Of a stretch of DNA of 52,435 bases, positions 5,626 to 36,280 are shown in pieces. The notes beneath the pieces are model-generated. The model was not told the origin of the DNA. It did no database searches and saw only the letters and a list, made by a program, of their open reading frames with translations. Source of the DNA: Candidatus Doudnabacteria bacterium. Lineage in GTDB: Bacteria > Patescibacteriota > Doudnabacteria > UBA920 > O2-02-FULL-48-8. Both the position numbers and the translations under genes were made by a program. Position 1 is the first letter of the stretch. Each line of letters opens with the position of its first letter. The DNA is taken from assembly GCA_016182875.1 (NCBI GenBank), contig JACPFQ010000002.1, positions 1-52,435 on the forward strand. The letters run 5' to 3'.

Positions 5626-6545
5626 AAATCATCTTTGCAGGCACAACTGAATTTGGAATTCCCACTTTGGAGAAACTATTAACTCTCAACTATCAACTAT
5701 TAACTGTTATTACCCAGCCAGACAAGCCAGTTGGCCGCAAAAAGCCTCTCACTCCCACGCCAATCAAACTTTGGGCGGAAAAAAATGGCATTCCTGTCCT
5801 GCAGCCAGAAAAAATTCGAAATTCGAAATTCGAAATTCGAAATTTGGACCCGGACCTGATGCTGGTCGCAGCTTATGGACAAATTATTCCTGAGGAAATA
5901 CTTAATATACCCAAATACGGCTCCATAAACATTCACGGCTCACTTCTCCCCAAGTACCGCGGCCCGACCCCGATTCAGGCAGCCATACTAAACGGCGATG
6001 ATGCCACGGGAGTAACACTCATGCTTATGGTCGAGCGTCTAGATGAAGGTCCGGTGATTGCCTCGAATGAAGTGAAAATCAAACGGCACGAAACTTTTCC
6101 ACAACTCTATGGCCGCCTATCATTAACCGCATCCGAACTCGTTGCAAAAACCCTGCCCGCATGGTTCGCAAAAAAAATTACGCCTCAACCCCAGGATAAC
6201 TCTCAGGCTGCCTATACTGGGTTTTTTGATGTTAAGTCAGGCCGAATTGACTGGACCAAAAGCGCTTCTGAGATCGACAGAAAAATCAGGGCGTTAAACC
6301 CCGAACCCGGCACCTGGACAACACTGAATAATAAATCTGTTAAAATATTAGAAGCGGAAGAAATACCGGACGAGGAGCTTATCGGACTGGCAGGCAAAAT
6401 CAGCGCCCGAAACAAACAACTTGTCGTAAAATGCCAGACTAACAGCCTAAAAATTACGAAGCTTCAGCCGGAAGGCAAAAAAATCATGCCTGGCGCGGAC
6501 TTTGCAAACGGCTTGAAAGACAAACAAAACAATATTTTTATCTAG
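5622..6545 (+). CDS. fmt: Methionyl-tRNA formyltransferase
   Basis: TQPDKP, AAYGQI, NIHGSLLPKYRG, LDEG; follows def. Confidence 0.96.
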   Translation: MKIIFAGTTEFGIPTLEKLLTLNYQLLTVITQPDKPVGRKKPLTPTPIKLWAEKNGIPVLQPEKIRNSKFEIRNLDPDLMLVAAYGQIIPEEILNIPKYGSINIHGSLLPKYRGPTPIQAAILNGDDATGVTLMLMVERLDEGPVIASNEVKIKRHETFPQLYGRLSLTASELVAKTLPAWFAKKITPQPQDNSQAAYTGFFDVKSGRIDWTKSASEIDRKIRALNPEPGTWTTLNNKSVKILEAEEIPDEELIGLAGKISARNKQLVVKCQTNSLKITKLQPEGKKIMPGADFANGLKDKQNNIFI

Positions 6546-8999
6546 ATGAATGAAGGACTAAGCACAACTGAGGCCAAAAAACTGCTCCATGAATTGGGCC
6601 CCAATAGGCTTTCCGACGGCTCCCAATTCAGCTTCTACGGACTGCTATTTTCAGAGGTTTTTAGTTTCTTAAACATCCTCCTGATATTGGCCGGTTTTGT
6701 TGCGCTCGCCATCAAGGATATACTCGATGCGATTTTGATATTCGCAATTGTGCTGTTAAACAGCATGATGTCGTTTTGGCAGGAATACAAAGCCGAGCGG
6801 ACATTGGAAGAGCTCAAAAACTTAACTTACTCATACGTCAGAGTGATTAGAAACGGAAAGGCCGTGCCGCTCAACAGCGAGGAGTTGGTGCCAGGTGACA
6901 TCGTTTATCTGGAAATCGGCGACAAAGTTCCGGCGGACGGCTTGGTGCTTGAATCTCTTAATCTGGAAGTAAACGAATCGGCTCTGACCGGCGAGGCGCT
7001 GCCCGTATACAAGCTGCCTTCGGATATCGAGAAAAATCAGGTTTTCGGGGGGACTTTGGTTGTGGCCGGGCACGGTAAAATCAAAATCAGCGCCACGGGT
7101 ACCCAAACCAGATTCGGCCGCATTGCGCAAACCCTCGAATCAATGAGGGAAACCGAAACTCCGCTGCAGCTGCAGATCAAACATTTAACTTTAAACGTCG
7201 CCTTAATTGCCATTGTGGCCAGCGTTCTAATTTATATCACGGGCATTTCCCTGGGACATAAGCAAATCGACATGTTTTTGGTGGGGGTCAGCACTGCGGT
7301 TGCGGCTATTCCTGAGGGCTTGCCGGCGATAATCCTGATAACGCTGGCGGTGGGCGTCAAGCGAATGGCGCTGCGCAAAGCGGTCGTGCGAAAAATGGTC
7401 GCGGTGGAGGCGCTCGGCTCAATCAACGTCATAGCAACGGACAAAACCGGAACGTTGACGAGCGGCGAGATGAAAGTTCAGAAGCTGTGGTTTGATGGAA
7501 AACTGCTCGGTCCGGAAGAATTCAAGCACACCCTCAAGTCCAACGCCGCGGCAAATAAATTATTGGATGCCCTCATCTTTCCCACCACAGCCAGCCTTGC
7601 GTATAAATTTGACCACGGCACCAAGGCGGTACTCGGCGACTCGACTGAAGGAGCGCTCCTGATACTCGCGCAATCGCTGGGCATCAATTACGAAGTCCAT
7701 AAACAGCAGGCCAAATTGGTGGAAGAGTTCGGCTTTGACCAAAAACGAAAAACCATGAGCGTTATTGTGGAGCGCGACAACGGGCTGGAGGCCTTTATTA
7801 AGGCTTCTCCGGAATATACCGTCCAGTACTCCACGAGAATTCTCCAGGATGGAAAAATCAGGATTCTGAACGAGAACGATAAGCAGCAGCTGACCAAACA
7901 ATTCGAAAATCTTGGAAAAAACGGATACCGTATTTTGGGATTCGCTTATCGAAACAACATAAACCGGAGCCCCCGCTACGTCAGGGCCGAGGTTGAATCC
8001 GACCTGGTTTTCCTGGGTTTCGCCTGTATTTCCGATCCTATCCGGCCGGAAGCAGTGGAAGCCATCAGGCTCGCGTCAAAAGCGGGAATAAGAACCATTA
8101 TGGTTACCGGCGACAATCAGCTCACAGCCATGTCAGTTGCCCGCCAGCTGGGGCTTGCTGCCGAGGGAGATGAAGTCATAACCGGACAAGACCTGGAAAA
8201 AATCAGCGATGAGGAACTGCAGTCAGTCATCTGGAAAGTCAAGATTTTTGCCAGGACGAATCCCGAAGACAAGCTAAGGATCGTTAAAGCGCTTCAAACC
8301 GCAGGCGCCGCCGTGGCCGTGACCGGAGACGGCGTCAATGACGCCTTGGCGCTTAAGCAGGCCGAAATCGGAGTTGCCATGGGCAAAAAAGGAACCGACG
8401 TCGCCAAAGAGGCTGCCGACATAGTTATTACCGACGATAATTATTCAAGCATTGTCAGGGCTGTTGAAGAAGGCCGCACCATCTATGACAATGTCCTGAA
8501 ATCGATCCGCTATTTGATTTCGACCAACATTTCCGAGCTCGCCACCATTCTTATGGCTCTGCTTATAGGCTTGCCTCTGCCGCTGGTGCCGGCTCAGATT
8601 TTATGGATAAATTTAATTTCCGACGGCCTGCCGGCGATAGCGCTTGCGTTGGACCCAAAAGATCCGGACGCCATGCGCCGCCCTCCGAGAAGCAAGGAGC
8701 ATCGCCTGCTCGACTTGGCTTCATTTGCTCTGCTGCTTTTATACGGACTGATAATAGCGGTCATTGCGCTGGCCGCATACTGGCAAATCCTAAAGACCAC
8801 CGGAAATGTGGTGCTGGCCCGAACGTGGACCTTTACTATTCTCATTCTCTTACAGCTGCTGATGGCCTTCATCATCCGCCGCAATTCCCACACCAACTAC
8901 AAGCTGATTCTGGCCGCAGTTTTTACGGTTGGCATTCAATTCCTGATTCTCATCAACCCAATCTTCTATCCCCTGTTCAAGATTCAAAAGCCATGGTAG
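6546..8999 (+). CDS. Cation-transporting P-type ATPase (type II, Ca2+-like)
   Basis: PEGL, DKTGTLT, TGDN, GDGVND, QILWINL. Confidence 0.93.
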   Translation: MNEGLSTTEAKKLLHELGPNRLSDGSQFSFYGLLFSEVFSFLNILLILAGFVALAIKDILDAILIFAIVLLNSMMSFWQEYKAERTLEELKNLTYSYVRVIRNGKAVPLNSEELVPGDIVYLEIGDKVPADGLVLESLNLEVNESALTGEALPVYKLPSDIEKNQVFGGTLVVAGHGKIKISATGTQTRFGRIAQTLESMRETETPLQLQIKHLTLNVALIAIVASVLIYITGISLGHKQIDMFLVGVSTAVAAIPEGLPAIILITLAVGVKRMALRKAVVRKMVAVEALGSINVIATDKTGTLTSGEMKVQKLWFDGKLLGPEEFKHTLKSNAAANKLLDALIFPTTASLAYKFDHGTKAVLGDSTEGALLILAQSLGINYEVHKQQAKLVEEFGFDQKRKTMSVIVERDNGLEAFIKASPEYTVQYSTRILQDGKIRILNENDKQQLTKQFENLGKNGYRILGFAYRNNINRSPRYVRAEVESDLVFLGFACISDPIRPEAVEAIRLASKAGIRTIMVTGDNQLTAMSVARQLGLAAEGDEVITGQDLEKISDEELQSVIWKVKIFARTNPEDKLRIVKALQTAGAAVAVTGDGVNDALALKQAEIGVAMGKKGTDVAKEAADIVITDDNYSSIVRAVEEGRTIYDNVLKSIRYLISTNISELATILMALLIGLPLPLVPAQILWINLISDGLPAIALALDPKDPDAMRRPPRSKEHRLLDLASFALLLLYGLIIAVIALAAYWQILKTTGNVVLARTWTFTILILLQLLMAFIIRRNSHTNYKLILAAVFTVGIQFLILINPIFYPLFKIQKPW

Positions 9000-23568: not shown

Positions 23569-24669
23569 TTACTCTACTTTATCAATTATCCCGCCGCCAA
23601 GTAATTCTTCGTCTTGATAAATCACAGCTGCCTGACCCGGCGTAATTGCCCTTTGCGGCTGATCAAATATTATTCGCAGTTTGTCATTGTCATCGTCATT
23701 GTCAATAGTCGCATCAAAATCCGGATGATGATAGCGAATAGACACACCCGCGTTCAAAGGGAACTTAGGAGCTTTGTCAGTCCACGAAACATCCGTGACT
23801 GTGAATTCTTTCTTCCAAAGCTTGGGGTCATTCTGGTCATTGGTCACCAATAGCCGGTTTGAGTCAAAATCCTTACTCGCCACATAATATGGCCCGCTTC
23901 CGCCAATACCGATGCCCTCGCGCTGGCCAATCGTGTAGTATGGCAACCCCTGATGCATTCCCAGAATCTGGCCCGAAGTGGTGACTACTTCCCCCGCTTC
24001 GGCTTTGATTTTTTCCTTGAGAAACTCGCGGACGTTGATTTTGCCGATAAAGCAAATCCCCTGCGAATCTTTTTTGGCATGATTAGGCAGGCCAAACTCT
24101 TTCGCCATTTCTCTCACTTCTGACTTCTTATATTCGCCGATCGGAAACAAGACCTTGGAAAGCTGTTCCTGCTTCAGAGTATACAAAAAGTAACTCTGGT
24201 CTTTCGCCGGATCTGCTCCTTTCAGTAATCGGTATGATATTTTGACTTTTAAATTGTCATTTTGACTTTTGATTTTTGACTTTTGAATTCTAGCGTAGTG
24301 CCCCGTAGCAACAAAATTCGCGCCCAAAGACAAAGCTTTGTCCAAAAAAAACTTGAACTTAATCTCGCTGTTGCACATCACATCCGGGTTTGGCGTCCTA
24401 CCCGCCTTGTATTCCCGCAAAAAATACTCGACAACCTTTTCGTAATATTCTTTTTCGAAGTTCCAGACGTAGAAGGGTATATCCAAAAGCTTGGCCACCT
24501 TGCGGGCGTCCTCGGCATCTTCGGCCCAAGTGCAGCCATAATGCCCAAAGTCCTCGCTCCAGTTCTTCATAAACACGCCAATAACGTCAAAACCTTGCTT
24601 TGCAAGCATTGCCGCGCTGACCGAGGAATCCACTCCTCCGCTCATGCCGACAACAACTTTTCTCTTCAT
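23569..24669 (-). CDS. mnmA: tRNA-specific 2-thiouridylase
   Basis: SGGVDS, TPNPDVMCN, ATGHYA, KDQSYFL, DSQGICF, PGQ. Confidence 0.97.
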   Translation of the reverse strand: MKRKVVVGMSGGVDSSVSAAMLAKQGFDVIGVFMKNWSEDFGHYGCTWAEDAEDARKVAKLLDIPFYVWNFEKEYYEKVVEYFLREYKAGRTPNPDVMCNSEIKFKFFLDKALSLGANFVATGHYARIQKSKIKSQNDNLKVKISYRLLKGADPAKDQSYFLYTLKQEQLSKVLFPIGEYKKSEVREMAKEFGLPNHAKKDSQGICFIGKINVREFLKEKIKAEAGEVVTTSGQILGMHQGLPYYTIGQREGIGIGGSGPYYVASKDFDSNRLLVTNDQNDPKLWKKEFTVTDVSWTDKAPKFPLNAGVSIRYHHPDFDATIDNDDDNDKLRIIFDQPQRAITPGQAAVIYQDEELLGGGIIDKVE

Positions 24670-25310
24670 GCAAAGGGCACCTTTGCAACTGAGTCTATTA
24701 GCATAGAATCGAGTTCTTTTCTTAGTTTAATTGCATCTAAACTCTGGGTCGTAAATTTAGGAAATTCTTGGATCGTTTTAAATTGATTCAATATTATATC
24801 GCTTTCACATGAAATATAACCATCCTTTTTTAAATAAAACATATAACTGCTCCAGGGATAGGTTTCAGGAGTCTTAGAAATGCCTGCGACTGTGGGATTT
24901 TGATGGATGTATGCGGAGAGCCAAAGTAGATAAGAGTCGTCATCAATTAAAACTTGTTTAAATTGATCTTGAAATACGTGACCAACGCGATCATATTTCT
25001 TGTTAAAATATTTTGAATAACTAGAACATAATTTCAAAATAAGCTTACTTGTCGGAATGTTACCATTTTGCTTAATCAAAATATGAAAATGATTTGGCAT
25101 TAAACAATACGCAATTAGTGAGAAGGTATTTGCCGGCAATTTTCTTATTCTTGATGTTGGATTGTCTTCTGGGTATAAATTTTGTCTTAGACGAAGTAAG
25201 AAGAATTTATAATCCTCTGGGTCAATAAAAATATTATTTTTGGCATTGCCCCTATTATAAATATGATAATACGCTCCAGCACCAAATTCTTTGTAATCAC
25301 GAATACCCAT
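24666..25310 (-). mobile_element. REP-associated tyrosine transposase (Y1 HUH, RAYT)
   Basis: YHIYNRGN, YCLMPNHFH, YIHQNP, YPWSS; flanked by REP hairpins; AT-rich. Confidence 0.9.
24669..24687. repeat. REP hairpin at RAYT 3' end
   Basis: TGCAAAGG-gca-CCTTTGCA. Confidence 0.8.
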
Positions 25311-25324
25311 ATATTTACTCTATA

Positions 25325-25362
25325 TGCAAAGGTGCCCTTTGTCAACAAAGGGCACCTTTGCA
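25325..25362. repeat. Inverted REP pair upstream of RAYT
   Basis: TGCAAAGGTGCCCTTTG-tcaa-CAAAGGGCACCTTTGCA. Confidence 0.85.
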
Positions 25363-25368
25363 ACCTCA

Positions 25369-26106
25369 CTACTCTACAAATTGCTCGGCTTGTTGCAGGT
25401 CCCTGAGAGTATTGATACCAAAAATCTCTTCAGGCTTTATCTCTAATGTATTTATTTTTACCTCCTGTCTGACCGCTGTTGCAACCAGATCAGTTAGGTA
25501 TTTTTCAGGATGTGAATTATTAAGTGCGCTATCGATATTTTTCCAAAGCCATTGCGTATTAAATATATAAATTCCAGGATTTACTTCGGTAATTGTCTTC
25601 TCGGCGTCGGTCAAATGAGCTAATTCAGTAATCTTCACAATGTAGCCTTTTTCACGAATAATGCGCGCAAAATTTGAAAAAATATGATATGGTTCCTCGA
25701 AACTTTTCACGTCTGCAGTAAACATAGTAAATTTCGACTTTGTATCTAAATGATATTTGATAAGTCTACGCAAACTTTCAACTTTTATTAATGGCATATC
25801 ACCATAAAGCACCAAAACATTGTCAGTAGTCACGTAATCCTTTGCAACTGCCACAGCGTGAGCAGTCCCTAGTTGTTCCTTCTGCTCGATATAAAGGTAT
25901 TTATCACCTAAATGTTGCTTCACCAGGTCAGCTTTGAATCCGACGACAATCACCGCAGGCAGCTCCAACCCAAGCTTATCAACTTCAATAAGCAAGTGAG
26001 AAATCAGGGACCTGCCGTTGAGTTCTACCAGCACTTTCGGCAGTTCCGGATGGCCCATGCGCGTACCCTTGCCGGCGGCCAAAATTACGACCTGGACATT
26101 ATTCAT
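25369..26106 (-). CDS. GlmU-like uridyltransferase domain only (no acetyltransferase beta-helix)
   Basis: ILAAGKGTRM, PKVL, EQLGTAHAV, YGDMP, EVNPGIY, EKYLTD, GIN; ends at 245 aa. Confidence 0.88.
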   Translation of the reverse strand: MNNVQVVILAAGKGTRMGHPELPKVLVELNGRSLISHLLIEVDKLGLELPAVIVVGFKADLVKQHLGDKYLYIEQKEQLGTAHAVAVAKDYVTTDNVLVLYGDMPLIKVESLRRLIKYHLDTKSKFTMFTADVKSFEEPYHIFSNFARIIREKGYIVKITELAHLTDAEKTITEVNPGIYIFNTQWLWKNIDSALNNSHPEKYLTDLVATAVRQEVKINTLEIKPEEIFGINTLRDLQQAEQFVE

Positions 26107-26435
26107 AAATCGATTCGAAATTCCGAGCCCCACTTGGCGAAGCCCAGCCGTTCATAAAAAGCATGCAGTCTTGAGTTAGAATCTCTGCTGGTCAAAATCA
26201 ATTTATAGCATCCCTGAGCTTTTGCTTCCGCGATTGCTTTTTTAACCAGTTCTGACCCGATTCCGCGCTTCCGGTAGTCCTCTTCGACATAGAGGTCCTC
26301 CAAAAGACCAAACGGCTCTTTGTGGAGATCGTTTCTTAAAATATATAGGTACTGTCTGCCGACCTGTTTGCCGTCTTCGTGAGCAGTGATTTTCAACGCA
26401 TAGCTGTCTCTTACGATTGATGTATTAAGTTCCAT
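26103..26435 (-). CDS. GNAT acetyltransferase, GNA1-like
   Basis: GLLEDLYV...RKRGIG...GCYKLIL...FYERLGF. Confidence 0.82.
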   Translation of the reverse strand: MELNTSIVRDSYALKITAHEDGKQVGRQYLYILRNDLHKEPFGLLEDLYVEEDYRKRGIGSELVKKAIAEAKAQGCYKLILTSRDSNSRLHAFYERLGFAKWGSEFRIDL

Positions 26436-27394
26436 ATGAGCTTGGCGGTTTTGGAAGCATCATGCCGGAGCAGGCTTCTGTTTAATTTATCAGCGGTTTT
26501 TTTCTTGTAAATAACCTGAGAAACAAGTTTGGCTTGATGCGCCTTGACGCCCAACCTTTCCATTTGCTTAACATCCGGTTCCACGAACTTTGCGTTTTCT
26601 TTTTTATATGCCAAAATCGATTTGCTCGAAGGCTTTTGATTATTGACGATGGCATAATTAAGCTTAGCAACACCGAGATATTTTTGCAGATTTCTGGCAA
26701 AATCAGAGGCCTTAAAGCCGTCGGTTTGTCCGGCTTTGGTCATGATATTGGTGATTAATATTTTTTTGGCTCTCGATTTTCCTAAAGCCTCTCTGATTCC
26801 TTTTACCAGCAAATTCGGAACGATACTGGTGTATAAGTCGCCCGGACCAAACACTATTGCGTCGGCCTCTTGCAAGGCAGCCATGGCTTTGGGGTTTGCT
26901 GAAGTATTTGGTTTTAATTGTAAGCTTTTGATTCTTGAGCGTCTGAAATGCGGCTGATCGATGTTATGTTCTCCGACAACTCTTTTGCCGCTTTCCAAAT
27001 AAGCTATGAGCAAGCCTGGCTTGAGTGATGCCGGCAAAACTGAACCGCGGACATTAAGCAGTTTTGCCGCCAAGTCCACTGCTGTCTCAATGTTACCAGT
27101 AGTTTTTTCCAACGCCGCCAGGATAATATTGCCGACCGTATGGCCTTTCAGGGATCCTTTTTCAAAGCGGTAAGAAAAAAGCTCGGTCATTTGCTTGTCA
27201 GTATAGGAAAGTCCGACCAGACACTGCCGCAGATCACCAGGCGGAAAAATGCCCAAGTCCCTTCGCAATACCCCGGTAGAACCGCCATCATCCGCGCTCG
27301 AGACAATCACGGTATTATTGGAAGGGTATTTGCGCAGACCGCTAAGCAGAGTAAACGTTCCGGTTCCTCCACCGATTATCACTATGTTCTTCAT
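26411..27394 (-). CDS. yvcK: YvcK/GlmR (CofD-like) protein
   Basis: IGGGTG, DDGGSTG, PPGDLR, GHTVGN, GPGDLYTSIVPNL, RHD. Confidence 0.92.
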   Translation of the reverse strand: MKNIVIIGGGTGTFTLLSGLRKYPSNNTVIVSSADDGGSTGVLRRDLGIFPPGDLRQCLVGLSYTDKQMTELFSYRFEKGSLKGHTVGNIILAALEKTTGNIETAVDLAAKLLNVRGSVLPASLKPGLLIAYLESGKRVVGEHNIDQPHFRRSRIKSLQLKPNTSANPKAMAALQEADAIVFGPGDLYTSIVPNLLVKGIREALGKSRAKKILITNIMTKAGQTDGFKASDFARNLQKYLGVAKLNYAIVNNQKPSSKSILAYKKENAKFVEPDVKQMERLGVKAHQAKLVSQVIYKKKTADKLNRSLLRHDASKTAKLIWNLIHQS

Positions 27395-28563
27395 GTGTGT
27401 TTGACCTTTTCAAATGCTCTCAATGCCTTGTCCATTTGTTCCTTGGTGTGAGCTGCGGATATCTGCACACGGATTCTGGCCTTGCCCTTGGGCACCACAG
27501 GGTAAGTAAATCCGCGGACATAAATGCCTTCCCCAAAAAGTGCGGCTGCCATTTCGCTGGCCCGTTTTTCTTCCATAAGCATTACAGGAGTGATTGGGTG
27601 TTTGCCGTCGCCGCCCAAGGTAAATCCCAGTTTTTCCATGCCTGACCTAAAGTAGTCAGTGTTGTCTTTCAATTGCTGTTTGAGCTTGGTGAATTTTGCG
27701 TCGAAGTTTTGCAAAACGTACAAGGCCGCGTTGGCTATAACCGGAGCAAGGCTATTGCTGAACAAGGCCGTGCGCGAGCGCTGATGGAGCACTTGGATGA
27801 TTTCCTTTCGCCCTGCGGTAAAGCCGCCTCCGGCCCCGCCCAGCGCTTTGCCAAATGTCGAAGTCACAATATCCACCCTGTCCATTAACCCCTCGACAGT
27901 GCCTCGCCCTTTTTTTCCCAAAACTCCGGACGCGTGCGAGCCGTCGACCATGACCATTGCATTATATTTCTCGGCCAAGTCGCAAATTTGTCCAAGCTTC
28001 GCCGTGTCGCCATCCATGCTGAATACTCCGTCAGTGGCAATCAGTTTCCGTCGTTTGTCCGAAGCCAACTCAAGCTGGCCTGCCAGATCCTCCATATCCG
28101 AATGCTTGTAGCGAAACCTTTCGGCTTTACAAAGTCTAATGCCGTCAATGATGCTGGCATGATTGAGTTCGTCGGAAAAAACAGCATCACCCTCCTTCAA
28201 GATCGTTTCGAACAGGCCGGTATTGGCGTCAAAGCAGGAAGTGTAGGTGATGGCTTCTTCGGTTCCGAAAAATTTGCAAATTTCTTTTTCCAGGTCTATG
28301 TGAATTGTCGAGGTGCCGACGATGAATCTAACGCTTGCTTCGCCAAAACCATGCTTGTCTATCCCTTCTTTAGCGGCGCGAGCAAGCTCTTCGGATCCCG
28401 CAAGTCCTAAGTAATTATTCGCGCAAAAGTTAAGCAAGGCCTTGCCGCCGATCTTTACCTCGGTCCCTTGCTTGCCTTCCAAAACCCCGACATCCTTCCA
28501 CATCCCGCTGTCTTTGATTTCCTTAAGCTCTTCTTGAAATTGTTGCTGATAGTTGTTAAACAT
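27391..28563 (-). CDS. kbl: Glycine C-acetyltransferase (2-amino-3-ketobutyrate CoA ligase)
   Basis: NFCANNYLGL, SVRFIVGT, SCFDAN.G, GKALGG, YPVVPKGKARIRVQISAAH. Confidence 0.93.
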   Translation of the reverse strand: MFNNYQQQFQEELKEIKDSGMWKDVGVLEGKQGTEVKIGGKALLNFCANNYLGLAGSEELARAAKEGIDKHGFGEASVRFIVGTSTIHIDLEKEICKFFGTEEAITYTSCFDANTGLFETILKEGDAVFSDELNHASIIDGIRLCKAERFRYKHSDMEDLAGQLELASDKRRKLIATDGVFSMDGDTAKLGQICDLAEKYNAMVMVDGSHASGVLGKKGRGTVEGLMDRVDIVTSTFGKALGGAGGGFTAGRKEIIQVLHQRSRTALFSNSLAPVIANAALYVLQNFDAKFTKLKQQLKDNTDYFRSGMEKLGFTLGGDGKHPITPVMLMEEKRASEMAAALFGEGIYVRGFTYPVVPKGKARIRVQISAAHTKEQMDKALRAFEKVKHT

Positions 28564-28572
28564 AAAAATAAA

Positions 28573-29217
28573 TTATTTTTTCTTAAAAATCACCCACCAT
28601 CTTGCCCAAACTTTGCCATTCCTATTTTCCAAGATTTCTTTCGGCTCCCCCTCTATCTCAAAATCGTTTTGTCGAGCCAATTCCTGTAATTCTTCTAAGG
28701 TAAAGTAGTGCTGTATACCTCTTTTATCGCCTTCGGTATCGACAGCGGTATATCCATAATCAGCAACTTGCTGCCGCGGACTCATTGTGTCTTTGACCGA
28801 GCGGCCTTGAAAAACAAAAATAGAATCCGGCTTCAAGACCCTGGCGGCTTCTGAAAAAGATTTTTGAATATCCACCCACATGTTGTGATGAATAGCGCCT
28901 ATGCTGACAGCGGAGTCAAAACTCCCATCCTCGAATGGAAGTTGTGAAGAAATTCCTTGCCGGAGGTCAGCCTGAACTCCGGCTGCCCGCGCTCCCTTGA
29001 GCATCTCTTCGGAAATGTCGATGCCCACGACTTGCTTGCCTTTGTCCTCCAAAAATTTTGTGTATCTTCCCTTACCGCATCCTATATCTACAACTTTATT
29101 GCCAAATCGGCTTTCATTTTGTTGATATAAATCAAAAAATTCCGGGCGCTCGGAAGCGTTCCACGCGTCGGCACGGGCGTTCCAGTCACGTTTGATTTGA
29201 TCGTGGTAGTCTGACAT
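28573..29217 (-). CDS. Class I SAM-dependent methyltransferase
   Basis: VDIGCGKG, GIDIS, LPFEDGSFD, RVLKP. Confidence 0.9.
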   Translation of the reverse strand: MSDYHDQIKRDWNARADAWNASERPEFFDLYQQNESRFGNKVVDIGCGKGRYTKFLEDKGKQVVGIDISEEMLKGARAAGVQADLRQGISSQLPFEDGSFDSAVSIGAIHHNMWVDIQKSFSEAARVLKPDSIFVFQGRSVKDTMSPRQQVADYGYTAVDTEGDKRGIQHYFTLEELQELARQNDFEIEGEPKEILENRNGKVWARWWVIFKKK

Positions 29218-29220
29218 AAA

Positions 29221-30348
29221 TTAAAATTGGATTAAAAATTTCGGGTGCTTAGCCATCATATCTTCAAATCTCTCTTTAGTATACTCGGAAATAGGCAAAA
29301 TTGTCCCCTCGCCCCTGTTCAGTATGATGTTGAACAGCTTTTCCTGAACGCCGTTGCTTGCGTCTTCCATGAGCGTCCTGGTAGTTTCCCAAGTCTTCCA
29401 GACTTGCCTGCCAGCCACGCAATGCATGGTCATACCTTTCATGACCAATTTATTATAGTCTTCATCAAGCACAAATTGACCGTTTTTAAACCCAAATAAT
29501 ATCACGTTACCTCCTCTGCGTACGGCCGCAATAGTGTTGTTCACTGAGCTGTTAAAGCCGGCCATCTCAAAAGCAACATCAAAACCCACACCTTCGGTAA
29601 TATTTTTAAGCTCCCTGATAATCTCCGCGTCGTGTTCGTAAGGCTGATTTTTTTGCGACGGTTTTAAGGGAATGACATAATCTATGCCTGATTTGCCCGC
29701 CATCTCTCGTGCAATGGGATTGGGCTCGATACCAATGATGCTTTTCGCCCCCAAACCCTTGACTACAATGGTCAAGAACATTCCGATCGGCCCAAGGCCA
29801 AAGATCGCCACTGTCTTGCCGCGGACATCGACTTTTGAGGCGGCATGTACGGCGTTGCCGAACGGCTCCTGCATGGCCGCTACCTCTGGGCGGATCTTGG
29901 AAGTATCTGTCTTCCAAACAATGTGCGCGGGCACCATGGCGTATTCCGCAAACCCGCCGTCATGGGAAATTCCTAGAATCTTTTCATTAGTGCAGACTTC
30001 CTTCTGACCGTGCAAGCACTGATAGCAATGGTTGCAGACCACATGCGACTCGCATGAGACAAAATCGCCGGGTTCGAGGTTTTTGACTTTTGGCCCAACT
30101 TTTTTCACCTCGCCAAAAAATTCATGACCGATTATGCGATATGGCTTTTTTTCGGCGCTTATAGAATCCAAAATCTGATTTTTGAAAGCCTGGCGGTACC
30201 AAATCCCCTTATCCGTGCCGCAGACACCGGCGTAATGAACTTTGATGATGACGTCATCCCCTTTGGTAATTACCGGCTCAGGAACTTCGGCTTTCTCAAA
30301 GCCAGTCTTACCCTCCCAATCTTTTATTCTGAGTATTAGAGCTTGCAT
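29221..30348 (-). CDS. tdh: Zn-dependent L-threonine 3-dehydrogenase-like protein
   Basis: GVCGTD, GHEF, ESH..C..C..C.......C, QEPFGNAVH, G.GPIG; near kbl. Confidence 0.85.
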   Translation of the reverse strand: MQALILRIKDWEGKTGFEKAEVPEPVITKGDDVIIKVHYAGVCGTDKGIWYRQAFKNQILDSISAEKKPYRIIGHEFFGEVKKVGPKVKNLEPGDFVSCESHVVCNHCYQCLHGQKEVCTNEKILGISHDGGFAEYAMVPAHIVWKTDTSKIRPEVAAMQEPFGNAVHAASKVDVRGKTVAIFGLGPIGMFLTIVVKGLGAKSIIGIEPNPIAREMAGKSGIDYVIPLKPSQKNQPYEHDAEIIRELKNITEGVGFDVAFEMAGFNSSVNNTIAAVRRGGNVILFGFKNGQFVLDEDYNKLVMKGMTMHCVAGRQVWKTWETTRTLMEDASNGVQEKLFNIILNRGEGTILPISEYTKERFEDMMAKHPKFLIQF

Positions 30349-30349
30349 T

Positions 30350-32173
30350 TTATTCGACTGTGACGCTTTTGGCCAGATTGCGGGGGCGATCGACATCCCT
30401 TTCCAAGGCAACCGCAATATGATAGGCAAACAGCTGCAGGGGTATCGTGTTCAGCAAAGGTTCCAGCAATTCCATGGTTTTGGGAACGTAGATGATATCA
30501 TCAGCAACCTCACTGGCTTCAGTGTCTTGCTCGGTAGCGATAATTAAAGTGCGTGCGCCGCGAGCCCGAACTTCCGCGATGCTGTTCTTCATTTTTTCAT
30601 AAAGTTGATTTTTAGTTAAGATGGCCACTACCGGCACGTCCTTGGAAACCAAAGCTAACGGCCCATGCTTCATCTCTCCGCCCGCAAAGCCTTCGCAGTG
30701 AATGTAAGAAATTTCCTTAAGCTTCAATGCCCCTTCAAGAGCGACTGGATAATTAACCCCGCGGCCCATGAAAAGAATATTGCGGTATTTCTTGTACTGC
30801 TTCGCTACATTTTTTATTTCATCATTCTGTTTTAAAATCTCGTTCATTTTTTCGGGAATTTCCAGCAGCGATTGCAATATTCTCTGGCCCGTGGCCAAGG
30901 AAGTATGCTTAAGCCTGCCAAACTGCAATGCATAAAGCAGTAAAACCGCGATCATATTCGTGTACGCTTTCGTGGAAGCCACCGCCAACTCAGCTCCCGC
31001 GTGGATGTAAGTGCCGGCGCCGGCTTCTCTGGCTATGGTGGAGCCGACGACATTTACGATGCCCCGCACAATCGCACCCTTCCTTTTCGCTTCACGCAAT
31101 GCCATTAAAGTATCAGCAGTTTCTCCGGACTGCGAAAGCAACAGAACCAATGTGGACTTGTCGACCACCGGATCTCTGTAGCGAAACTCGGAGGAAAAAT
31201 CCACTTCCGTAGGCAGATTGGCCAGGCGCTCAAAAGCGTACTTGCCTACCAGTCCGGCATAGCGCGCCGTGCCTTCGGCGATAATCATTACCCTGTTTAC
31301 AGAGCGCATTTGCTCCTCTGTCATATTTAGGCCGCCGATTTTTGCCGTACCTTCCTTCATATCCATGCGGCCGCGGAGGGCGTCCTCAAAAACTATAGGC
31401 TGGTCAAATATCTCCTTAAGCATAAAATGCTCAAACCCGCCTTTCTGCGCCGATTCTTTACCCCAATCTATTTGCATTACATTCTTTTCCACTGCTTCAT
31501 TTTTCAAATTGACAATCTTGAAACCAGACTGCTCAATGGTCGCCACTTCACCGTCTTTTAGAAACTGAACCATTCTGGTATAAGGAGTAAAAGCAGTGAT
31601 ATCGCTGGCGACAAATTGCTCAAGGTCCGACATGCCGATGCATAGGGGGCTTCCTAAACGGGCCGCGACCAGTCGATCTGGATGATCGGCATGCATAACC
31701 AAAATGCCGTAAGTGCCGCGCACCTTAAGCAAGGATTTTATGACGGCTTCGGTCAGATCTCCGTCATAATTTTCGTATATAAGCTGGGCCAAAACTTCAG
31801 TATCGGTCTCTGACTCAAATTTGACTCCCCGCATGACCAGCCGTTCTTTCAGCTCGCGATAATTTTCGATAATGCCGTTGTGGACAATGGCCAGCTTGCC
31901 TGCCACGACATGGGGATGCGCGTTAAACTCCGTAACGCCTCCATGCGTTGCCCAGCGAGTATGGGCAACGCCCACTCTGCCAGGCAAATTCTTGCCTTCG
32001 ATTTTTTTTTCAAGCTTTTCCACCTTACCAACTTCTCTAACACGATTTATTCGTCCATCGTTAAGCACCGCAACACCAGCGCTGTCATAGCCGCGGTATT
32101 CCAAATCTCTCAATCCTTGCAGAAGGATTGGTAAAGCTTGTTGCTTACCGACATATCCGATAATGCCACACAT
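30350..32173 (-). CDS. glmS: Glutamine--fructose-6-phosphate aminotransferase
   Basis: MCGI, EYRGYDSAG, HTRWATHG, SQSGETAD, PRNLAKSVTVE. Confidence 0.98.
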   Translation of the reverse strand: MCGIIGYVGKQQALPILLQGLRDLEYRGYDSAGVAVLNDGRINRVREVGKVEKLEKKIEGKNLPGRVGVAHTRWATHGGVTEFNAHPHVVAGKLAIVHNGIIENYRELKERLVMRGVKFESETDTEVLAQLIYENYDGDLTEAVIKSLLKVRGTYGILVMHADHPDRLVAARLGSPLCIGMSDLEQFVASDITAFTPYTRMVQFLKDGEVATIEQSGFKIVNLKNEAVEKNVMQIDWGKESAQKGGFEHFMLKEIFDQPIVFEDALRGRMDMKEGTAKIGGLNMTEEQMRSVNRVMIIAEGTARYAGLVGKYAFERLANLPTEVDFSSEFRYRDPVVDKSTLVLLLSQSGETADTLMALREAKRKGAIVRGIVNVVGSTIAREAGAGTYIHAGAELAVASTKAYTNMIAVLLLYALQFGRLKHTSLATGQRILQSLLEIPEKMNEILKQNDEIKNVAKQYKKYRNILFMGRGVNYPVALEGALKLKEISYIHCEGFAGGEMKHGPLALVSKDVPVVAILTKNQLYEKMKNSIAEVRARGARTLIIATEQDTEASEVADDIIYVPKTMELLEPLLNTIPLQLFAYHIAVALERDVDRPRNLAKSVTVE

Positions 32174-32176
32174 AGT

Positions 32177-32923
32177 TTAAAGTTTGCTCCAGTTAAATTC
32201 AAAAATCATTTTCTGGGTTTCATAAATTTCCAGGTTTGAGATGATGATGCCGACAGGATTATCGCTGTTGTCCATGCTGATGTGCGCGACCTTGCCGCCG
32301 TAAATCAATTCATAAGTCGCCTTGAGATCTTTTTTGCTCGTCGGCATCCATTTTCTTTCATCAAGGCCGACCAGATGCCCGCCCTCGCTCAACGAAATCG
32401 TTTTGACCGAAATTTCTTGCTTGATTCTGCGCTTGCTGAAATCCGGCATGGCTTCATAAACGTTTTTGCGAATGCCGGCTGAGGAATACGCATAATAAAT
32501 CTTATCATCGCTTTTTTCCAGAGTCTGCAGGACATCCTCAAGAATCATTCGAATACCTTCCGGCCCTTCGTAAAATCTGGCTACCGGCTTGCCCCCTCTT
32601 TTCTCGAACATCAACTTAAGTTCAGCCAAGCCGTCCTGTGCCGACTGTTTGAGGCTTTCCAGCTGGTCTTGCTTCTGCTTAATAAGGTTTATAATTTTCT
32701 CAGGTTGAGAAGCGACGAAGTATTGATGCGTTGATTTATCCAAATAATTAACCAGGCCTTCCTCGAGAAGCTTTTTGAGTGCGTCATAAGTGGTTCCGCG
32801 GTTGATTCTGGCATGGGTTGCCACGTTTCGCACGGGCGAAGGCCCGAGTTCAATCAAGGACAAATACACCGCGATTTCTTTGTCAGATAAGCCTATTTCT
32901 TTAAGCAATGCCTCGGTTTGCAT
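32177..32923 (-). CDS. TrmB family transcriptional regulator
   Basis: GLSDKE..VY..L, R.TTYD.L..L...GLV, FYEG.EGI; alternative starts 32947 and 32962. Confidence 0.88.
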   Translation of the reverse strand: MQTEALLKEIGLSDKEIAVYLSLIELGPSPVRNVATHARINRGTTYDALKKLLEEGLVNYLDKSTHQYFVASQPEKIINLIKQKQDQLESLKQSAQDGLAELKLMFEKRGGKPVARFYEGPEGIRMILEDVLQTLEKSDDKIYYAYSSAGIRKNVYEAMPDFSKRRIKQEISVKTISLSEGGHLVGLDERKWMPTSKKDLKATYELIYGGKVAHISMDNSDNPVGIIISNLEIYETQKMIFEFNWSKL

Positions 32924-33044
32924 GAGTATTAATATTCTATTCTTCATGCTTACATTTGTCAATTCTATTTCTACAACTATTCATAAAATGCGGAATATCC
33001 CAATTTAAACTAGATATTTCTTGTCAGTAATCGTTTGACAAACT

Positions 33045-33074
33045 AAAAAGCCCAGCTCTTGACGAACTGGGCTT
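33045..33074 (-). terminator. Intrinsic terminator after ATPase gene
   Basis: AAGCCCAG..CTGGGCTT with T tract on the - strand. Confidence 0.65.
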
Positions 33075-33089
33075 GTCCACAAAATGTTA

Positions 33090-34877
33090 TCAAAACTTCA
33101 CGGTGTCGCCGGGGTTAAGAGTACTGGCTTTGGGCTCAGCTGGTTTTGGTTTAGGTTCTTCCGGCTTTTTGGATTCTAATGTGCTGACAGCTTTCTGCGC
33201 TTCTTCTTCAACTTTCTGCTGGGTCATTTTATTTATAGTCTCCCAAACGGGATTTTCCTGTTTTTTGCCCTCGGTTCTGCGGGGTTGGTCGCCCGCTCTT
33301 CTGCCCGGGTTTTGCGGCCGCTGCTCTTTTCTCCTGTCTTCGCGCTTTTCTTCCCGCCCATCTCCCTCGCCTCGCTCGACGCGAGTCGAAGCGGGGATGG
33401 GCGAGGCTCGCCCCGATGAAATCGGGGCGGCGAACTTAGCCTTCCGGTCAACTTTGGGGGCCAAAGGCGCTGTAGCTCTGATTTCAGAGGCCGGGCCGGT
33501 AGTTACCCGCTCGCGGTATCTCAACTCACCCTGCAAATCTTCCTGCTCCACCGCTTTGCTTTCTATCATGGCAACCTCGGCGTGAAATTCCGCTCCCATC
33601 CATTTGTTGATTTTTTCCTCTATCACGCTCCTGTCGTTTGCATAGCGCTCCCTCGAAACCTTGATGACCTTGTCTTCATTTTGGGTTGGGACCGAAATCG
33701 GCGGCAGGGTCGTGGCGGAAAAAGGATTGGAAGACACGCCGTTAATCATCAGCTTGAGAAGAATATTATACTTGGGCAGGTTCAGAAGGTCGTTGGGCGT
33801 GAAGGTTGGCTCAAACTCCGTTTCCAAATACTCCGCATCGTCGGCACCCACGCGGAAACAAATCATGGTTCCGACGTTCCCGAAGATAGCGTCGCGCACT
33901 ATCGTATTTCTGTCGGAAACCAGCTGGTTGATGTATTGATGAGCCACGATTAGGTTGAGCCGGTACTTTCTGGCTTCGGACAGAATATTGGCAAACGATG
34001 TGGTGGCGAAATTCTGGAATTCGTCGACATAAAGATAGAAATCCTCTCTCTCCTCTTCCGGAATATCCACGCGGCTCATGGCGGCCAGCTGCAGTTTGGT
34101 AATCAGCATCGCGCCCAGGAGCGCGGAATTATCCTCCCCGATCCGGCCTTTGGAAAGATTAATCAGAAAGATTTTTTTGTTGTCCATGATATCGCGAAGG
34201 TCAATGGTGCTTTTGGTCTGGCCCACGATATTGCGAATTATGGCCGAAGACAAAAACTGCCCGACTTTGTTCTGGATTGGCGCTATGGCTTCGTTTCGGA
34301 ATTTGTCGTTGTAGTTCGCAAACTCATCCACCCAGAACGAGCGCACCACCGGATCCTTGATGTTATCAACTATTTTCTTGCGGTAGGTTCTGTTGACCAG
34401 CATGCGGGCTATTCCAAGCAGAGTGTTTCCAGGGGAATCAAGCAGGGCAAGAATAGTATTGTTGAGGATATACTCCATCCTCGCGCTCCAAACTCCTGCC
34501 CAAATTTTGGTAAAGACGCCCATCAAGCCCGAGGCCACCAAGTGCTTGTATTTGGGGTCCACGGCCTCAAGAGGATTGAAGGCTATCGGATAATCGATGT
34601 CCGCGGGGTTGAAATAAACAACGTCGTTGACCCGGTTTGAGGGGATGTAGTCGAGTATTCGCTCGACAGAATCGCCGTGCGGATCCACAAAGGCAACTCC
34701 GTGGCCGCTTTGAATATCCTGCACGACCATATTCTCTATCATGGTCGTCTTGCCCATGCCGGTTTTACCAATCACATACACATGCCTTCTGCGGTCATCG
34801 CGGCGGATGCCGAAAGGCACTTCGCGATTGCGGAAGTTGGTTTTGGCGAACAAAGTTATGTCGTTGTCTGAGTTCAT
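33090..34877 (-). CDS. TrwB/VirB4/HerA-like P-loop ATPase
   Basis: RRRH.Y.IGKTGMGKT, DPHGD, YVDEFQNF, SEARKY; disordered C-terminal tail. Confidence 0.9.
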   Translation of the reverse strand: MNSDNDITLFAKTNFRNREVPFGIRRDDRRRHVYVIGKTGMGKTTMIENMVVQDIQSGHGVAFVDPHGDSVERILDYIPSNRVNDVVYFNPADIDYPIAFNPLEAVDPKYKHLVASGLMGVFTKIWAGVWSARMEYILNNTILALLDSPGNTLLGIARMLVNRTYRKKIVDNIKDPVVRSFWVDEFANYNDKFRNEAIAPIQNKVGQFLSSAIIRNIVGQTKSTIDLRDIMDNKKIFLINLSKGRIGEDNSALLGAMLITKLQLAAMSRVDIPEEEREDFYLYVDEFQNFATTSFANILSEARKYRLNLIVAHQYINQLVSDRNTIVRDAIFGNVGTMICFRVGADDAEYLETEFEPTFTPNDLLNLPKYNILLKLMINGVSSNPFSATTLPPISVPTQNEDKVIKVSRERYANDRSVIEEKINKWMGAEFHAEVAMIESKAVEQEDLQGELRYRERVTTGPASEIRATAPLAPKVDRKAKFAAPISSGRASPIPASTRVERGEGDGREEKREDRRKEQRPQNPGRRAGDQPRRTEGKKQENPVWETINKMTQQKVEEEAQKAVSTLESKKPEEPKPKPAEPKASTLNPGDTVKF

Positions 34878-34954
34878 ATTGTTTTAAAGTTTAAAGGTTA
34901 TAAAAGTTAAAAGAGGCATAAACTTTCTAACCTTACAACTTTTTAACATTCTAA

Positions 34955-36280
34955 CTAACCTACTGGCAGATCCGGAGGTGGGGCTGCTTTGACCGCTCCG
35001 ACTCTTTCTAACTGGGATACCCTGACGTTGGGCGCAACTGGGAAGTGGAAAATCGAGGCCAGCTCCTCCGTGTTTAAATACGTCTCCCCGCTTCCTTGCC
35101 AAATTTTCCTGCCAATAAAATAATGCCACATGTGCCGCATCCTCGTAAGCTTCCTTTGCCGCATGATCGGAGCCTCAAGCTTTTTAGAGACATAGTAATG
35201 AAGGTCAGTCCAAGTGTGCCCGGTATCGGGCTTAAGCCCGTTCATATTAATGTCGTCAAATCCCCGAAACGCGCCGACTAATTCCGGCGACCGGCGCCGC
35301 CTGTTGAATCTGTCCTTGGGCGCTAGATAAAGCAGCCTGATTTTAACCTCAAAAGTCAGCTTGCTCAAACCGTGCTCAATCGCGGCGATTACCTGCTTCT
35401 CGACATCGCTTTTGTGCAGCATCAGCGTCGGCGGCTCCTCTTTTATTTTTGTCGGGGCTTTCTGCTCGGCCTCGGGGTTGATGCCCATCAAATCGCGGAC
35501 AATAATGTCCATGAAAACTCTCGGAATTTCCATTATAATATCGAACAGCCCGGCAGAATTCTTTTTGGGCACGCCTTTCAGCTCATCTAACAGATGCTGG
35601 ACATGATCCTTCCAATCGTTGCCGATTGCCCGGATGACTAGCTGGTAAGCCATCAATTCGTAAGGCTCGATATTGCTCATGACTTCGATAATATTGGCCA
35701 CCGGATCGACGAAGGTTTTTTGCTCCGGATGCTCAAACTCGGTAAAGACTCGAATCGGATAAGCGTTGGCGTTCCTCTTGTTCAGCTGCGTGCCCCAAAA
35801 ATCAAAGTCGACTTTGTCGGGATAAAATTCATGCGGCATGTTTCTCATATAGTCTTCCACTTCCTTAATTTCCGCTTTCGGGTATTGCGCGAATATCGCG
35901 CTCTCCAGCAGATCCCTGTATCTTTCTGCGACTCGAAAAATATACGAGACTTTGCCGCCAAGGCTGACTATTTCACAGCTTATGTGAAGATTCATCTTCC
36001 CGCTCAAAACTTCTCCCCAGGTCAGGCTCGGTCTCATGGCGTGCAGGGCTGTGAAAACCTGCTCCATGGCCTTCGGCGAGCGCTCACTCAGCTCTTCTAT
36101 GCTGACCTCCAAGAAAATCCACTTGATCTTGGCCATAAACTTATTCTGATTCCTCAATACTGTCAGCTTCCACCACATCCAAACAAGCAGGCAGACCAGG
36201 GCTAAAAAAAATATCCACCCAAACCCGCCGCTTACCAAGGAATCTATAATGGCGAAGAGGTCCTTAAACGCCGAAATCAT
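34955..36280 (-). CDS. Membrane-anchored partner of the ATPase
   Basis: N-terminal TM, PKAMEQVF..LH, S.EIVS, AQYP, LN.EELA..FHFP. Confidence 0.8.
   Translation of the reverse strand: MISAFKDLFAIIDSLVSGGFGWIFFLALVCLLVWMWWKLTVLRNQNKFMAKIKWIFLEVSIEELSERSPKAMEQVFTALHAMRPSLTWGEVLSGKMNLHISCEIVSLGGKVSYIFRVAERYRDLLESAIFAQYPKAEIKEVEDYMRNMPHEFYPDKVDFDFWGTQLNKRNANAYPIRVFTEFEHPEQKTFVDPVANIIEVMSNIEPYELMAYQLVIRAIGNDWKDHVQHLLDELKGVPKKNSAGLFDIIMEIPRVFMDIIVRDLMGINPEAEQKAPTKIKEEPPTLMLHKSDVEKQVIAAIEHGLSKLTFEVKIRLLYLAPKDRFNRRRRSPELVGAFRGFDDINMNGLKPDTGHTWTDLHYYVSKKLEAPIMRQRKLTRMRHMWHYFIGRKIWQGSGETYLNTEELASIFHFPVAPNVRVSQLERVGAVKAAPPPDLPVG

Follow-up and report, generated by a model that had tools for sequence, protein, structure and literature searches.

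The stretch of DNA analyzed here, which we call the window, comprises 52,435 nucleotides (nt) of contig JACPFQ010000002.1 from a Candidatus Doudnabacteria genome (assembly GCA_016182875.1). It may derive from four DNA sequencing runs that all belong to a single groundwater study. Within positions 25369-32962 it carries eight open reading frames (ORFs) on the minus strand, identified with Pfam and NCBIfam models, in the order trmB, glmS, tdh, a methyltransferase gene, kbl, yvcK, a gene for a minimal GNAT acetyltransferase (mini-GNAT) and a gene for the N-terminal domain of GlmU (glmU-N). Our analysis concerns this operon and the part it may play in the synthesis of UDP-N-acetylglucosamine (UDP-GlcNAc). 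With the most plausible starts, the spacing between consecutive genes is 3, 1, 3, 9, -4, -25 and -4 nt. An earlier reading of the letters alone (the sequence-only reading) had described eight co-directional, abutting genes in this order, and that description holds, with spacing from a 9-nt gap to a 25-nt overlap. Directly upstream of trmB lies a promoter-like site (TTGACA-17-TAGAAT; 32934..32962, minus strand), which agrees with the consensus at 11 of 12 positions and is the best scorer across 24500-33300. A terminator-like hairpin at 33048-33074 belongs to the gene preceding trmB. Both signals are consensus matches only.

The first gene (32177..32923, minus strand, as are all eight) encodes a TrmB-family helix-turn-helix (HTH) regulator of 248 amino acids (aa; PF01978, E 1.3e-13), whose ATG at 32923 agrees with where homologues begin. 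The HTH scores 51 bits against a cut-off of 25.6. Full-length TrmB equivalogs score 19-31 bits against cut-offs of 500-650, the protein being shorter than the roughly 340 aa of an HTH plus sugar-binding domain. TrmB is likely the transcriptional regulator of the operon. The second gene (30350..32173) encodes GlmS, a glutamine--fructose-6-phosphate transaminase of 607 aa (TIGR01135, 784 bits, cut-off 418). A scan of the window with Rfam returned one tRNA only and no glmS ribozyme. The ATG of tdh (29221..30348) begins 1 nt past the glmS stop. Its 375-aa product is probably a Zn-dependent L-threonine 3-dehydrogenase of the medium-chain dehydrogenase/reductase (MDR) type. Its five closest sequences in the Protein Data Bank (PDB) all belong to that enzyme (E 2e-64 to 1e-44), the next-best family follows at E 5e-31, and the equivalog NF003808 gives 262.6 bits, under its cut-off of 380. 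Next comes a class-I S-adenosylmethionine-dependent methyltransferase of 214 aa (28573..29217; PF08241, E 1e-24), then Kbl, the glycine C-acetyltransferase (2-amino-3-ketobutyrate CoA ligase), with 390 aa (27391..28563; NF005394, 567.3 bits, cut-off 460; also above TIGR01822, 525.8 bits against 493). The sixth gene (26411..27394) encodes a 327-aa protein of the YvcK/GlmR family, related to CofD (TIGR01826, 303.5 bits, cut-off 196), whose top PDB matches are UPF0052/YvcK structures.

To our knowledge, the synthesis of UDP-GlcNAc by a bifunctional GlmU is regarded as something that all bacteria share and need. The last gene of the operon (25369..26106) encodes only the uridyltransferase domain of that enzyme. 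Its 245-aa product matches TIGR01173 at positions 2-237 of 452 (171 bits), aligns to residues 5-248 of solved GlmUs, keeps the motifs LAAGKGTRM and E-V-N-P-G, and finds GlmUs in the PDB at E 4e-35 and weaker. The match stops at position 237, and the left-handed beta-helix domain is absent from the protein, as the sequence-only reading had noticed. Its ATG overlaps the stop of the GNAT gene (ATGA); the ORF list puts a GTG start at 26133 instead. Truncated N-domain fragments of E. coli GlmU reportedly keep uridyltransferase activity.

The absence of the second domain extends well beyond this gene. In the assembly (789 kb, 14 contigs, 94% complete; the window is contig 7) there is no full-length GlmU, the N-domain of the window is the best GlmU match, and no hexapeptide-repeat (Hexapep) protein appears at E<=0.1. 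One candidate for the GlmU C-domain, the 121-aa protein L003, was rejected: it reaches E 0.0015 only, has no NCBIfam match and was judged bactofilin-like from its sequence alone. The sequence-only reading had proposed a genome-wide search for a full-length glmU, and the same search in wider samples was also negative. Among 61 genomes of the order, including that of the window, none has a full-length GlmU and 17 have a strong N-domain-only form. Among 201 genomes drawn evenly from the phylum, no GlmU exceeds the family cut-off, and matches stop near model position 245, one reaching 307. Only N-domain forms of about 250 aa occur in the two samples. A uridyltransferase-only GlmU is thus the rule across the phylum sample and not peculiar to this organism. 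Compared with bifunctional GlmU, the window protein is a clear homologue of the uridyltransferase domain and would lead to the same end product; the trimer-forming beta-helix acetyltransferase domain is what we did not find in the gene, the genome or either sample, and we propose that acetylation is carried out by an unrelated fold. The accessible parts of a preprint from June 2026 (bioRxiv 10.64898/2026.06.23.733835) state that bacteria with a truncated N-terminal GlmU domain suggest "an unidentified acetyltransferase" whose substrate would be a phosphorylated glucosamine intermediate; a planctomycete is cited there as having the N-domain alone.

Our candidate is the seventh gene (26103..26435). 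It encodes a minimal GNAT acetyltransferase of 110 aa in a reading frame that is open for just 118 codons, and matches PF00583 (E 2e-19) over profile positions 37-116 of 116 only. It aligns to about residues 54-160 of solved GNATs, so it lacks beta1-alpha1-alpha2, the N-terminal third of the fold. This shortness is not decay, because a whole family is conserved at similar length: we found 187 protein clusters at E<=1e-5, and the 120 matches listed are mostly 107-117 aa long. An alignment of 52 members has 13 invariant columns. Among proteins of 194-2000 aa no fused form was found at E<=1e-10, which is weak evidence. A confident model in a protein atlas has a predicted local distance difference test score (pLDDT) of 0.92 and matched only generic GNAT clusters without functional names. 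A 103-aa "minimal acetyltransferase" is said to have been described in Arabidopsis (At1g77540).

The family profile matches 57 distinct PDB sequences at E<=1e-3. The second of these is Gna1 of T. brucei (E 2.6e-12), and Gna1 of yeast, Arabidopsis, A. fumigatus, human and C. elegans is matched as well (E 1.2e-9 to 1.3e-5). We mapped residues by aligning the profile to yeast Gna1, took their roles from the accessible parts of a paper on C. elegans GNA1 (PMC3413214) and of a GNAT review (PMC4964394), and counted conservation over 81 family members. According to the former, a Glu-Asp pair on beta4 of Gna1 (E98/D99 in yeast, Glu104/Asp105 in C. elegans) binds the 3- and 4-hydroxyls of the sugar, Lys136 of the C. 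elegans enzyme binds the 6-phosphate, Tyr143 of yeast is the catalytic tyrosine that stabilizes the CoA thiolate, and a cysteine (C135 in yeast, C141 in C. elegans) is conserved throughout GNA1. Lys136 corresponds to yeast K130 in G-C-Y-K by a six-residue offset, which we derived from the pairs Tyr149/Tyr143 and Cys141/Cys135 in the same source.

The mini-GNAT carries both motifs that the sequence-only reading had picked out, G..ED..V and GCYK.IL, as G43-L-L-E46-D47-L-Y-V50 and G75-C-Y-K78-L-I-L81. E46/D47 align to yeast E98/D99 (Glu in 80 of 81 members, Asp or Asn in all 81), K78 to K130, the equivalent of the 6-phosphate lysine (81/81), and Y94 to the catalytic Y143 (81/81). The acetyl-CoA pyrophosphate loop, R55-K-R-G58-I-G60, fits R/Q-x-x-G-x-G/A, with R55, G58 and G60 each in 80-81 of 81; R84 is conserved to the same degree. 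R107, present in 80 of 81, stands two positions ahead of the column of the phosphate-binding arginine (R164 in C. elegans) in the yeast alignment and aligns to the arginine in the C-terminal M-R-L-D-L of the T. brucei enzyme. Conservation of the key residues extends to the 33 members that have no glm or acetyl-CoA genes close by as well as to the 48 that do.

From these residues we conclude that the mini-GNAT would work like Gna1 on an anionic amino sugar, yet that it is not a strict member of the Gna1 family. It shares with eukaryotic Gna1/GNPNAT1 (EC 2.3.1.4) the GNAT superfamily, the beta4 Glu-Asp, the lysine of G-C-Y-K, the tyrosine in F-Y-x-x-x-G-F, a basic residue in the C-terminal strand and the same proposed step, between GlmS/GFA1 and the mutase. 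Unlike Gna1, it has 110 instead of 150-190 aa, lacks beta1-alpha1-alpha2, has Ser for Cys and is prokaryotic and operon-encoded; the similarity lies only at the level found between GNAT families (E 1e-12 to 1e-5). The two motifs that the sequence-only reading had set beside those of Gna1 are borne out, but the protein is not a bona fide Gna1.

In the order sample the mini-GNAT occurs in 12 of 61 genomes (E<=3e-29), that is, in the window's own and in 11 relatives. GlmS is above its cut-off in 13 genomes, namely the 12 carriers and one other (G031), and YvcK reaches E<=1e-20 in 17. Around the GNAT of the 11 relatives we found yvcK in all 11, tdh in 10, kbl in 10, glmS in nine, trmB in eight, glmU-N in four and the methyltransferase gene in three; one locus is cut by a contig end, and in another genome glmS lies on a separate contig. 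Because the arrangement recurs in 11 of 11 GNAT-carrying relatives, it is not a chance juxtaposition. The sequence-only reading depended on a conserved link between tdh/kbl and glm genes, and this link is present in 10 of the 11 relatives; it is also kept across three gene orders and two non-homologous types of Tdh. The methyltransferase gene lies between tdh and kbl in three of the 11 relatives; it is a facultative member of the cluster, and the proposed pathway offers no role for it. In G012, a genome of the same family that does not have the block, a gene resembling a type IV secretion system (T4SS) coupling protein, trmB, glmU-N and mnmA are joined directly. Since the flanks are the same, the stretch from glmS to the GNAT gene behaves as one unit that can be inserted or deleted.

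The phylum sample shows that co-occurrence is not just the movement of such a block. Fourteen of the 201 genomes carry the mini-GNAT, and GlmS is present in all 14, compared with 84 of the 187 others. This extends the 12 of 12 in the order. The two genes are no more than 4 kb apart in six of the 14 genomes; the other eight have them at a distance from each other or split between contigs, so that one mobile block is not the whole reason for their association. Twelve of the 14 also have an N-domain-only GlmU at E<=1e-40.

For a wider view we took the best 80 of 339 GNAT loci from a pattern scan of species-representative genomes. According to tblastn searches, glmS, yvcK or glmU-N stands beside the GNAT in 45 of the 80, in at least five gene orders. 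The gene trmB heads the cluster in 22 of 80, yvcK is present in 42, and the methyltransferase gene lies between tdh and kbl in one. The commonest neighbour of the GNAT is yvcK (11 of 11 relatives, 42 of 80 loci), and the two reading frames frequently overlap. This invites a different explanation, in which the mini-GNAT acetylates a protein, YvcK/GlmR or GlmS, and the level of acetyl-CoA regulates amino-sugar synthesis rather than feeding it. Post-translational modifications of B. subtilis GlmR are reported in the accessible parts of PMC13046274, and the N-alpha-acetyltransferase Naa30 is among the PDB matches of the GNAT profile. We nevertheless consider this explanation very improbable, for the following reasons. 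First, it would leave the pathway without any acetyltransferase. Second, several gene orders place the GNAT away from yvcK, beside glmS, tdh or kbl. Third, the conserved Glu-Asp and Lys fit the Gna1 alignments and are absent from the alignments shown for Naa30 and the polyamine acetyltransferases.

The genome encodes MurA and therefore needs UDP-GlcNAc. In our judgement, the operon is probably a self-contained module for de novo synthesis of this compound, in an organism and a phylum that lack bifunctional GlmU. The predicted steps are as follows. GlmS would produce glucosamine 6-phosphate (GlcN-6-P). The 110-aa GNAT would N-acetylate a glucosamine phosphate, for which GlcN-6-P is the likelier substrate by likeness to Gna1. 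A single phosphohexomutase, encoded outside the operon, would shift the phosphate to C1, and the stand-alone GlmU N-domain would uridylylate the resulting N-acetylglucosamine 1-phosphate (GlcNAc-1-P) to the product used by MurA. Tdh and Kbl, from the same transcript, would turn threonine into glycine and acetyl-CoA, one acetyl-CoA per amino sugar. By analogy with Bacillus, YvcK/GlmR probably tunes GlmS. In this scheme we infer what the GNAT acts on, which way flux runs through Tdh and Kbl, how specific the mutase is, and what YvcK and TrmB do.

The position of the mutase in this sequence of steps could also be the bacterial one. The mutase would then make glucosamine 1-phosphate (GlcN-1-P) first, the mini-GNAT would acetylate it, and the adjacent GlmU N-domain would take up GlcNAc-1-P. 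GlcN-1-P is, as is well established, the substrate of the domain that GlmU has lost here; in the window the end of the GNAT gene runs into the start of glmU-N, and the two genes adjoin each other in four of 11 relatives; and the absent N-terminal wall of the GNAT could open the acceptor site to the other phosphate position. We regard this order of steps as unlikely. The 6-phosphate lysine is among the residues that the mini-GNAT has in common with Gna1, and in most of the wider loci the GNAT adjoins glmS or yvcK, not glmU-N. The mutase itself points the same way. As the sequence-only reading had noted, there is none within the window; the single PGM/PMM-family gene of the genome lies on another contig (C9) and scores better with PgmG (380 bits) and archaeal GlmM (315 bits) than with bacterial GlmM (170 bits, cut-off 448), under every cut-off.

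The sequence-only reading had further proposed that acetyl-CoA comes from threonine, with the GNAT in place of the missing GlmU domain, and comparative genomics supports both suggestions, as far as gene content can. In single-Pfam searches of the genome, seven families of common enzymes that form acetyl-CoA gave no match: POR_N (pyruvate:ferredoxin oxidoreductase), Pta, AckA, CoA_binding_2 (ADP-forming acetyl-CoA synthetase), AMP-binding ligases, PFL and E1_dh. Each of the same searches gave matches in 3 to 13 of 14 control genomes. Because no other source was found, Tdh and Kbl of the operon are the apparent suppliers. Across the order Kbl is present in 11 of 61 genomes, each of them GNAT-positive and each with Kbl inside the cluster. 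The one carrier without Kbl (G051) has two genes between glmS and yvcK: one encodes a phosphoketolase (1333 bits, cut-off 962), and the other is of the Pta family and at 289 bits just under its cut-off of 310. A phosphoketolase occurs in one other genome of the order. Strong POR_N matches are found in five genomes, none with GNAT or Kbl.

The same slot is filled in different ways among the wider loci. Of the 45 glm-linked loci, 23 carry a module that forms acetyl-CoA, and these modules are of four non-homologous kinds. Fifteen loci have MDR-type Tdh and/or Kbl, one of them with an additional acetyl-CoA synthetase (827 bits, cut-off 657). Two have a threonine dehydrogenase of the short-chain dehydrogenase/reductase (SDR) type (PDB 2yy7, E 6e-124) together with Kbl, two have phosphoketolase and Pta, and four have the alpha, beta and gamma subunits of a 2-oxoacid:ferredoxin oxidoreductase. 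Some loci place the GNAT between tdh and kbl, and two more loci that are short or poor in context read tdh-GNAT-kbl and phosphoketolase-GNAT. The GNAT tree is poorly resolved, and its well-supported branches force a minimum of four changes for MDR-Tdh/Kbl, three for the oxidoreductase, two for phosphoketolase and one for SDR-Tdh; phosphoketolase and Pta substitute for tdh-kbl in two separate clades. Because the enzymes that replace each other have acetyl-CoA as their common product, it is the supply of acetyl-CoA that appears to matter.

As a control we looked at the neighbourhoods of glmS in 20 GlmS-positive genomes of the phylum without mini-GNAT. With tblastn, tdh, kbl, phosphoketolase, Pta, oxidoreductase or acetyl-CoA synthetase was found near glmS in none of the 20. 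With Pfam, two of the 20 turned out to have ATP-citrate-lyase-like genes beside glmS. In one (L127, 3599-8685, minus strand) glmS is followed by such genes (ATP-grasp_2 with Citrate_bind, a CoA-ligase and a citrate-synthase C-terminal domain) and then by a different GNAT of 150 aa; in the other (L134, 6466-11350, plus strand) the first two of these genes lie beside glmS. A third control locus has a 169-aa GNAT two genes from glmS. Neither GNAT belongs to the mini-GNAT family: hhalign gave 25% identity and a probability of 96% for the 150-aa protein and a probability of 39% for the 169-aa protein. The ATP-citrate-lyase/GNAT loci weaken the control as a negative, and they strengthen the pattern of glmS, a source of acetyl-CoA and a GNAT.

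One could also argue that Tdh and Kbl are kept for something other than acetyl-CoA. Kbl is well established to yield glycine besides, which could serve protein synthesis, one-carbon units or wall peptides, and the accessible parts of PMC7567580 count Tdh among the quorum-sensing-related genes of these radiations, which might point to aminoacetone or pyrazine signals. We give this idea very little credence. What the phosphoketolase plus Pta, the oxidoreductase, the acetyl-CoA synthetase and the ATP-citrate-lyase-like genes in the same slot share with Tdh/Kbl is acetyl-CoA and not glycine. Moreover, none of the 49 GNAT-negative genomes of the order has Kbl (one has phosphoketolase and five have POR_N).

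A number of observations weigh against the pathway as we propose it. Some concern the GNAT itself. The top PDB match of the profile is not a Gna1 but 2dxq, an Agrobacterium acetyltransferase of uncharacterised function; among the Gna1 matches stand polyamine and N-alpha-acetyltransferases as well, at E-values that are typical between GNAT families. The column of Gna1's conserved cysteine is occupied by S83, with Ser in 78 of 81 members, and the N-terminal third that is missing here helps to shape the acceptor site in other GNATs. The genome has three further GNAT-domain ORFs, of which the one inspected, on contig C4, has no glm context. Other observations concern the distribution of the genes. 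G031 has trmB, yvcK, a HAD-family gene and glmS in a row and no mini-GNAT. In the phylum sample the 84 GlmS-positive genomes without mini-GNAT mean that another acetyltransferase must exist in the phylum, and it could exist here too. The choice of the 80 wider loci favours sequences close to the query, and no fewer than five of them lie on contigs already counted with the order relatives, so that the counts are neither unbiased nor independent. In 22 of the 45 glm-linked loci there is no acetyl-CoA module within the stretch fetched. Finally, 33 of the 80 loci, by record title from cyanobacteria, DPANN archaea and some Patescibacteria, have no glm or acetyl-CoA context, and among their neighbours (including tRNA synthetase, ZPR1-like proteins, regulators and primase) nothing informative is conserved.

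How far the proposed function reaches beyond this operon is a question on which we lean only slightly to one side. With odds a little better than even, the family of about 110 aa provides the glucosamine-phosphate N-acetyltransferase that is missing wherever bacteria, and perhaps DPANN archaea, have a uridyltransferase-only GlmU, and the acetyl-CoA metabolism of Patescibacteria largely serves it, through operon-wired generators that are swapped in place. These generators would be threonine via two unrelated dehydrogenases and Kbl, phosphoketolase and Pta, 2-oxoacid:ferredoxin oxidoreductase, acetyl-CoA synthetase and ATP-citrate lyase. A bolder extension would have YvcK physically complete the acceptor site of the GNAT.

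Several side observations touch these genes. In the family whose clusters have no glmU-N next to them, an NTP-transferase of about 280 aa (matching positions 2-176 of the GlmU model) is encoded on the same contig, 3-4 kb upstream of trmB, and may be the uridylyltransferase of that family (matches at G032:C7:26996-27532, G037:C12:13067-13597, G049:C7:18010-18543, G052:C13:47325-47858 and G058:C50:32264-32791). Clusters titled Magasanikbacteria repeatedly have the gene for a HAD-family sugar phosphatase, of beta-phosphoglucomutase type, between yvcK and either glmU-N or glmS (L042, L045, L048, L064, L075, L078, L090 and L118 at 6448-7089; also the GNAT-less G031); the protein of L075 matches the HxpB model with 240 bits (cut-off 191) and could be a phosphatase or a mutase. 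Mini-GNATs from records titled cyanobacteria or DPANN keep the same conserved residues with no glm or acetyl-CoA gene nearby. Loci of this kind are L059, L061, L065, L079, L085, L088, L092, L094, L096, L109, L114 and L115; L047, L055, L072, L089, L091, L095, L102, L116 and others. Several records may be mislabelled: their titles say Gammaproteobacteria, Methanosarcinales or Saccharibacteria, and their gene contexts resemble those of Patescibacteria or DPANN.

Further genes flank the operon. The one between glmU-N and mnmA is of the IS200/Y1 type, and its product looks like a REP-associated tyrosine transposase (24666-25310, minus strand; PF01797, E 3.5e-10; NF047646 52.6 bits, under the cut-off of 80). 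It shares 4 nt with the start of mnmA, and a promoter-like site of its own lies at 25317-25345. On the other side, at 33090-36280 (minus strand), is the gene of an ATPase like T4SS coupling proteins (TrwB_AAD_bind, E 2.5e-12), whose C-terminal tail is long, charged and of low complexity; after it comes a 441-aa protein without a Pfam family. G012 has a similar protein of 583 aa at the matching spot upstream of trmB.

How does the operon compare with what is known? Its enzymes are those of tdh-kbl degradation operons and of the GlmR-GlmS system of B. subtilis, with Kbl and YvcK above their cut-offs and yvcK again linked to glmS. In contrast to those operons, tdh-kbl is here embedded within an operon for amino-sugar biosynthesis rather than in a catabolic one, and unlike B. 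subtilis glmR, yvcK is here transcriptionally fused to an acetyltransferase gene; our literature searches turned up neither arrangement. The preprint cited above deals with NagU of S. aureus and partial-GlmU routes, and the mini-GNAT family is a candidate for the acetyltransferase it calls for; in its accessible parts it concerns a eukaryote-like uridyltransferase and not acetyl transfer, and names no GNAT or coupling to acetyl-CoA. The accessible parts of a study that mined GNA1 enzymes from thermophiles (PMC9829697) added nothing here. In the literature we found no description of the operon, of a GNAT replacing the GlmU C-domain or of a link from threonine to GlcNAc in these bacteria; the extended data of the preprint may list partial-GlmU taxa.

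What is new, then, would be Gna1-like chemistry in a minimal prokaryotic GNAT and an operon that couples the supply of acetyl-CoA to the synthesis of a wall precursor, both as predicted from gene content and conserved residues. If true, a 110-residue enzyme with such chemistry would be of interest for engineering GlcNAc production. For the step missing beside the uridyltransferase-only GlmU there is now a defined, small family of enzymes that can be tested as a candidate. The non-homologous swaps in one operon slot are an unusually clear sign of selection on the supply of a metabolite rather than on a gene. For the genome-reduced, fermentative symbionts themselves, the operon would give a reason why threonine catabolism or other acetyl-CoA enzymes are retained: each amino sugar of the wall requires one acetyl group.

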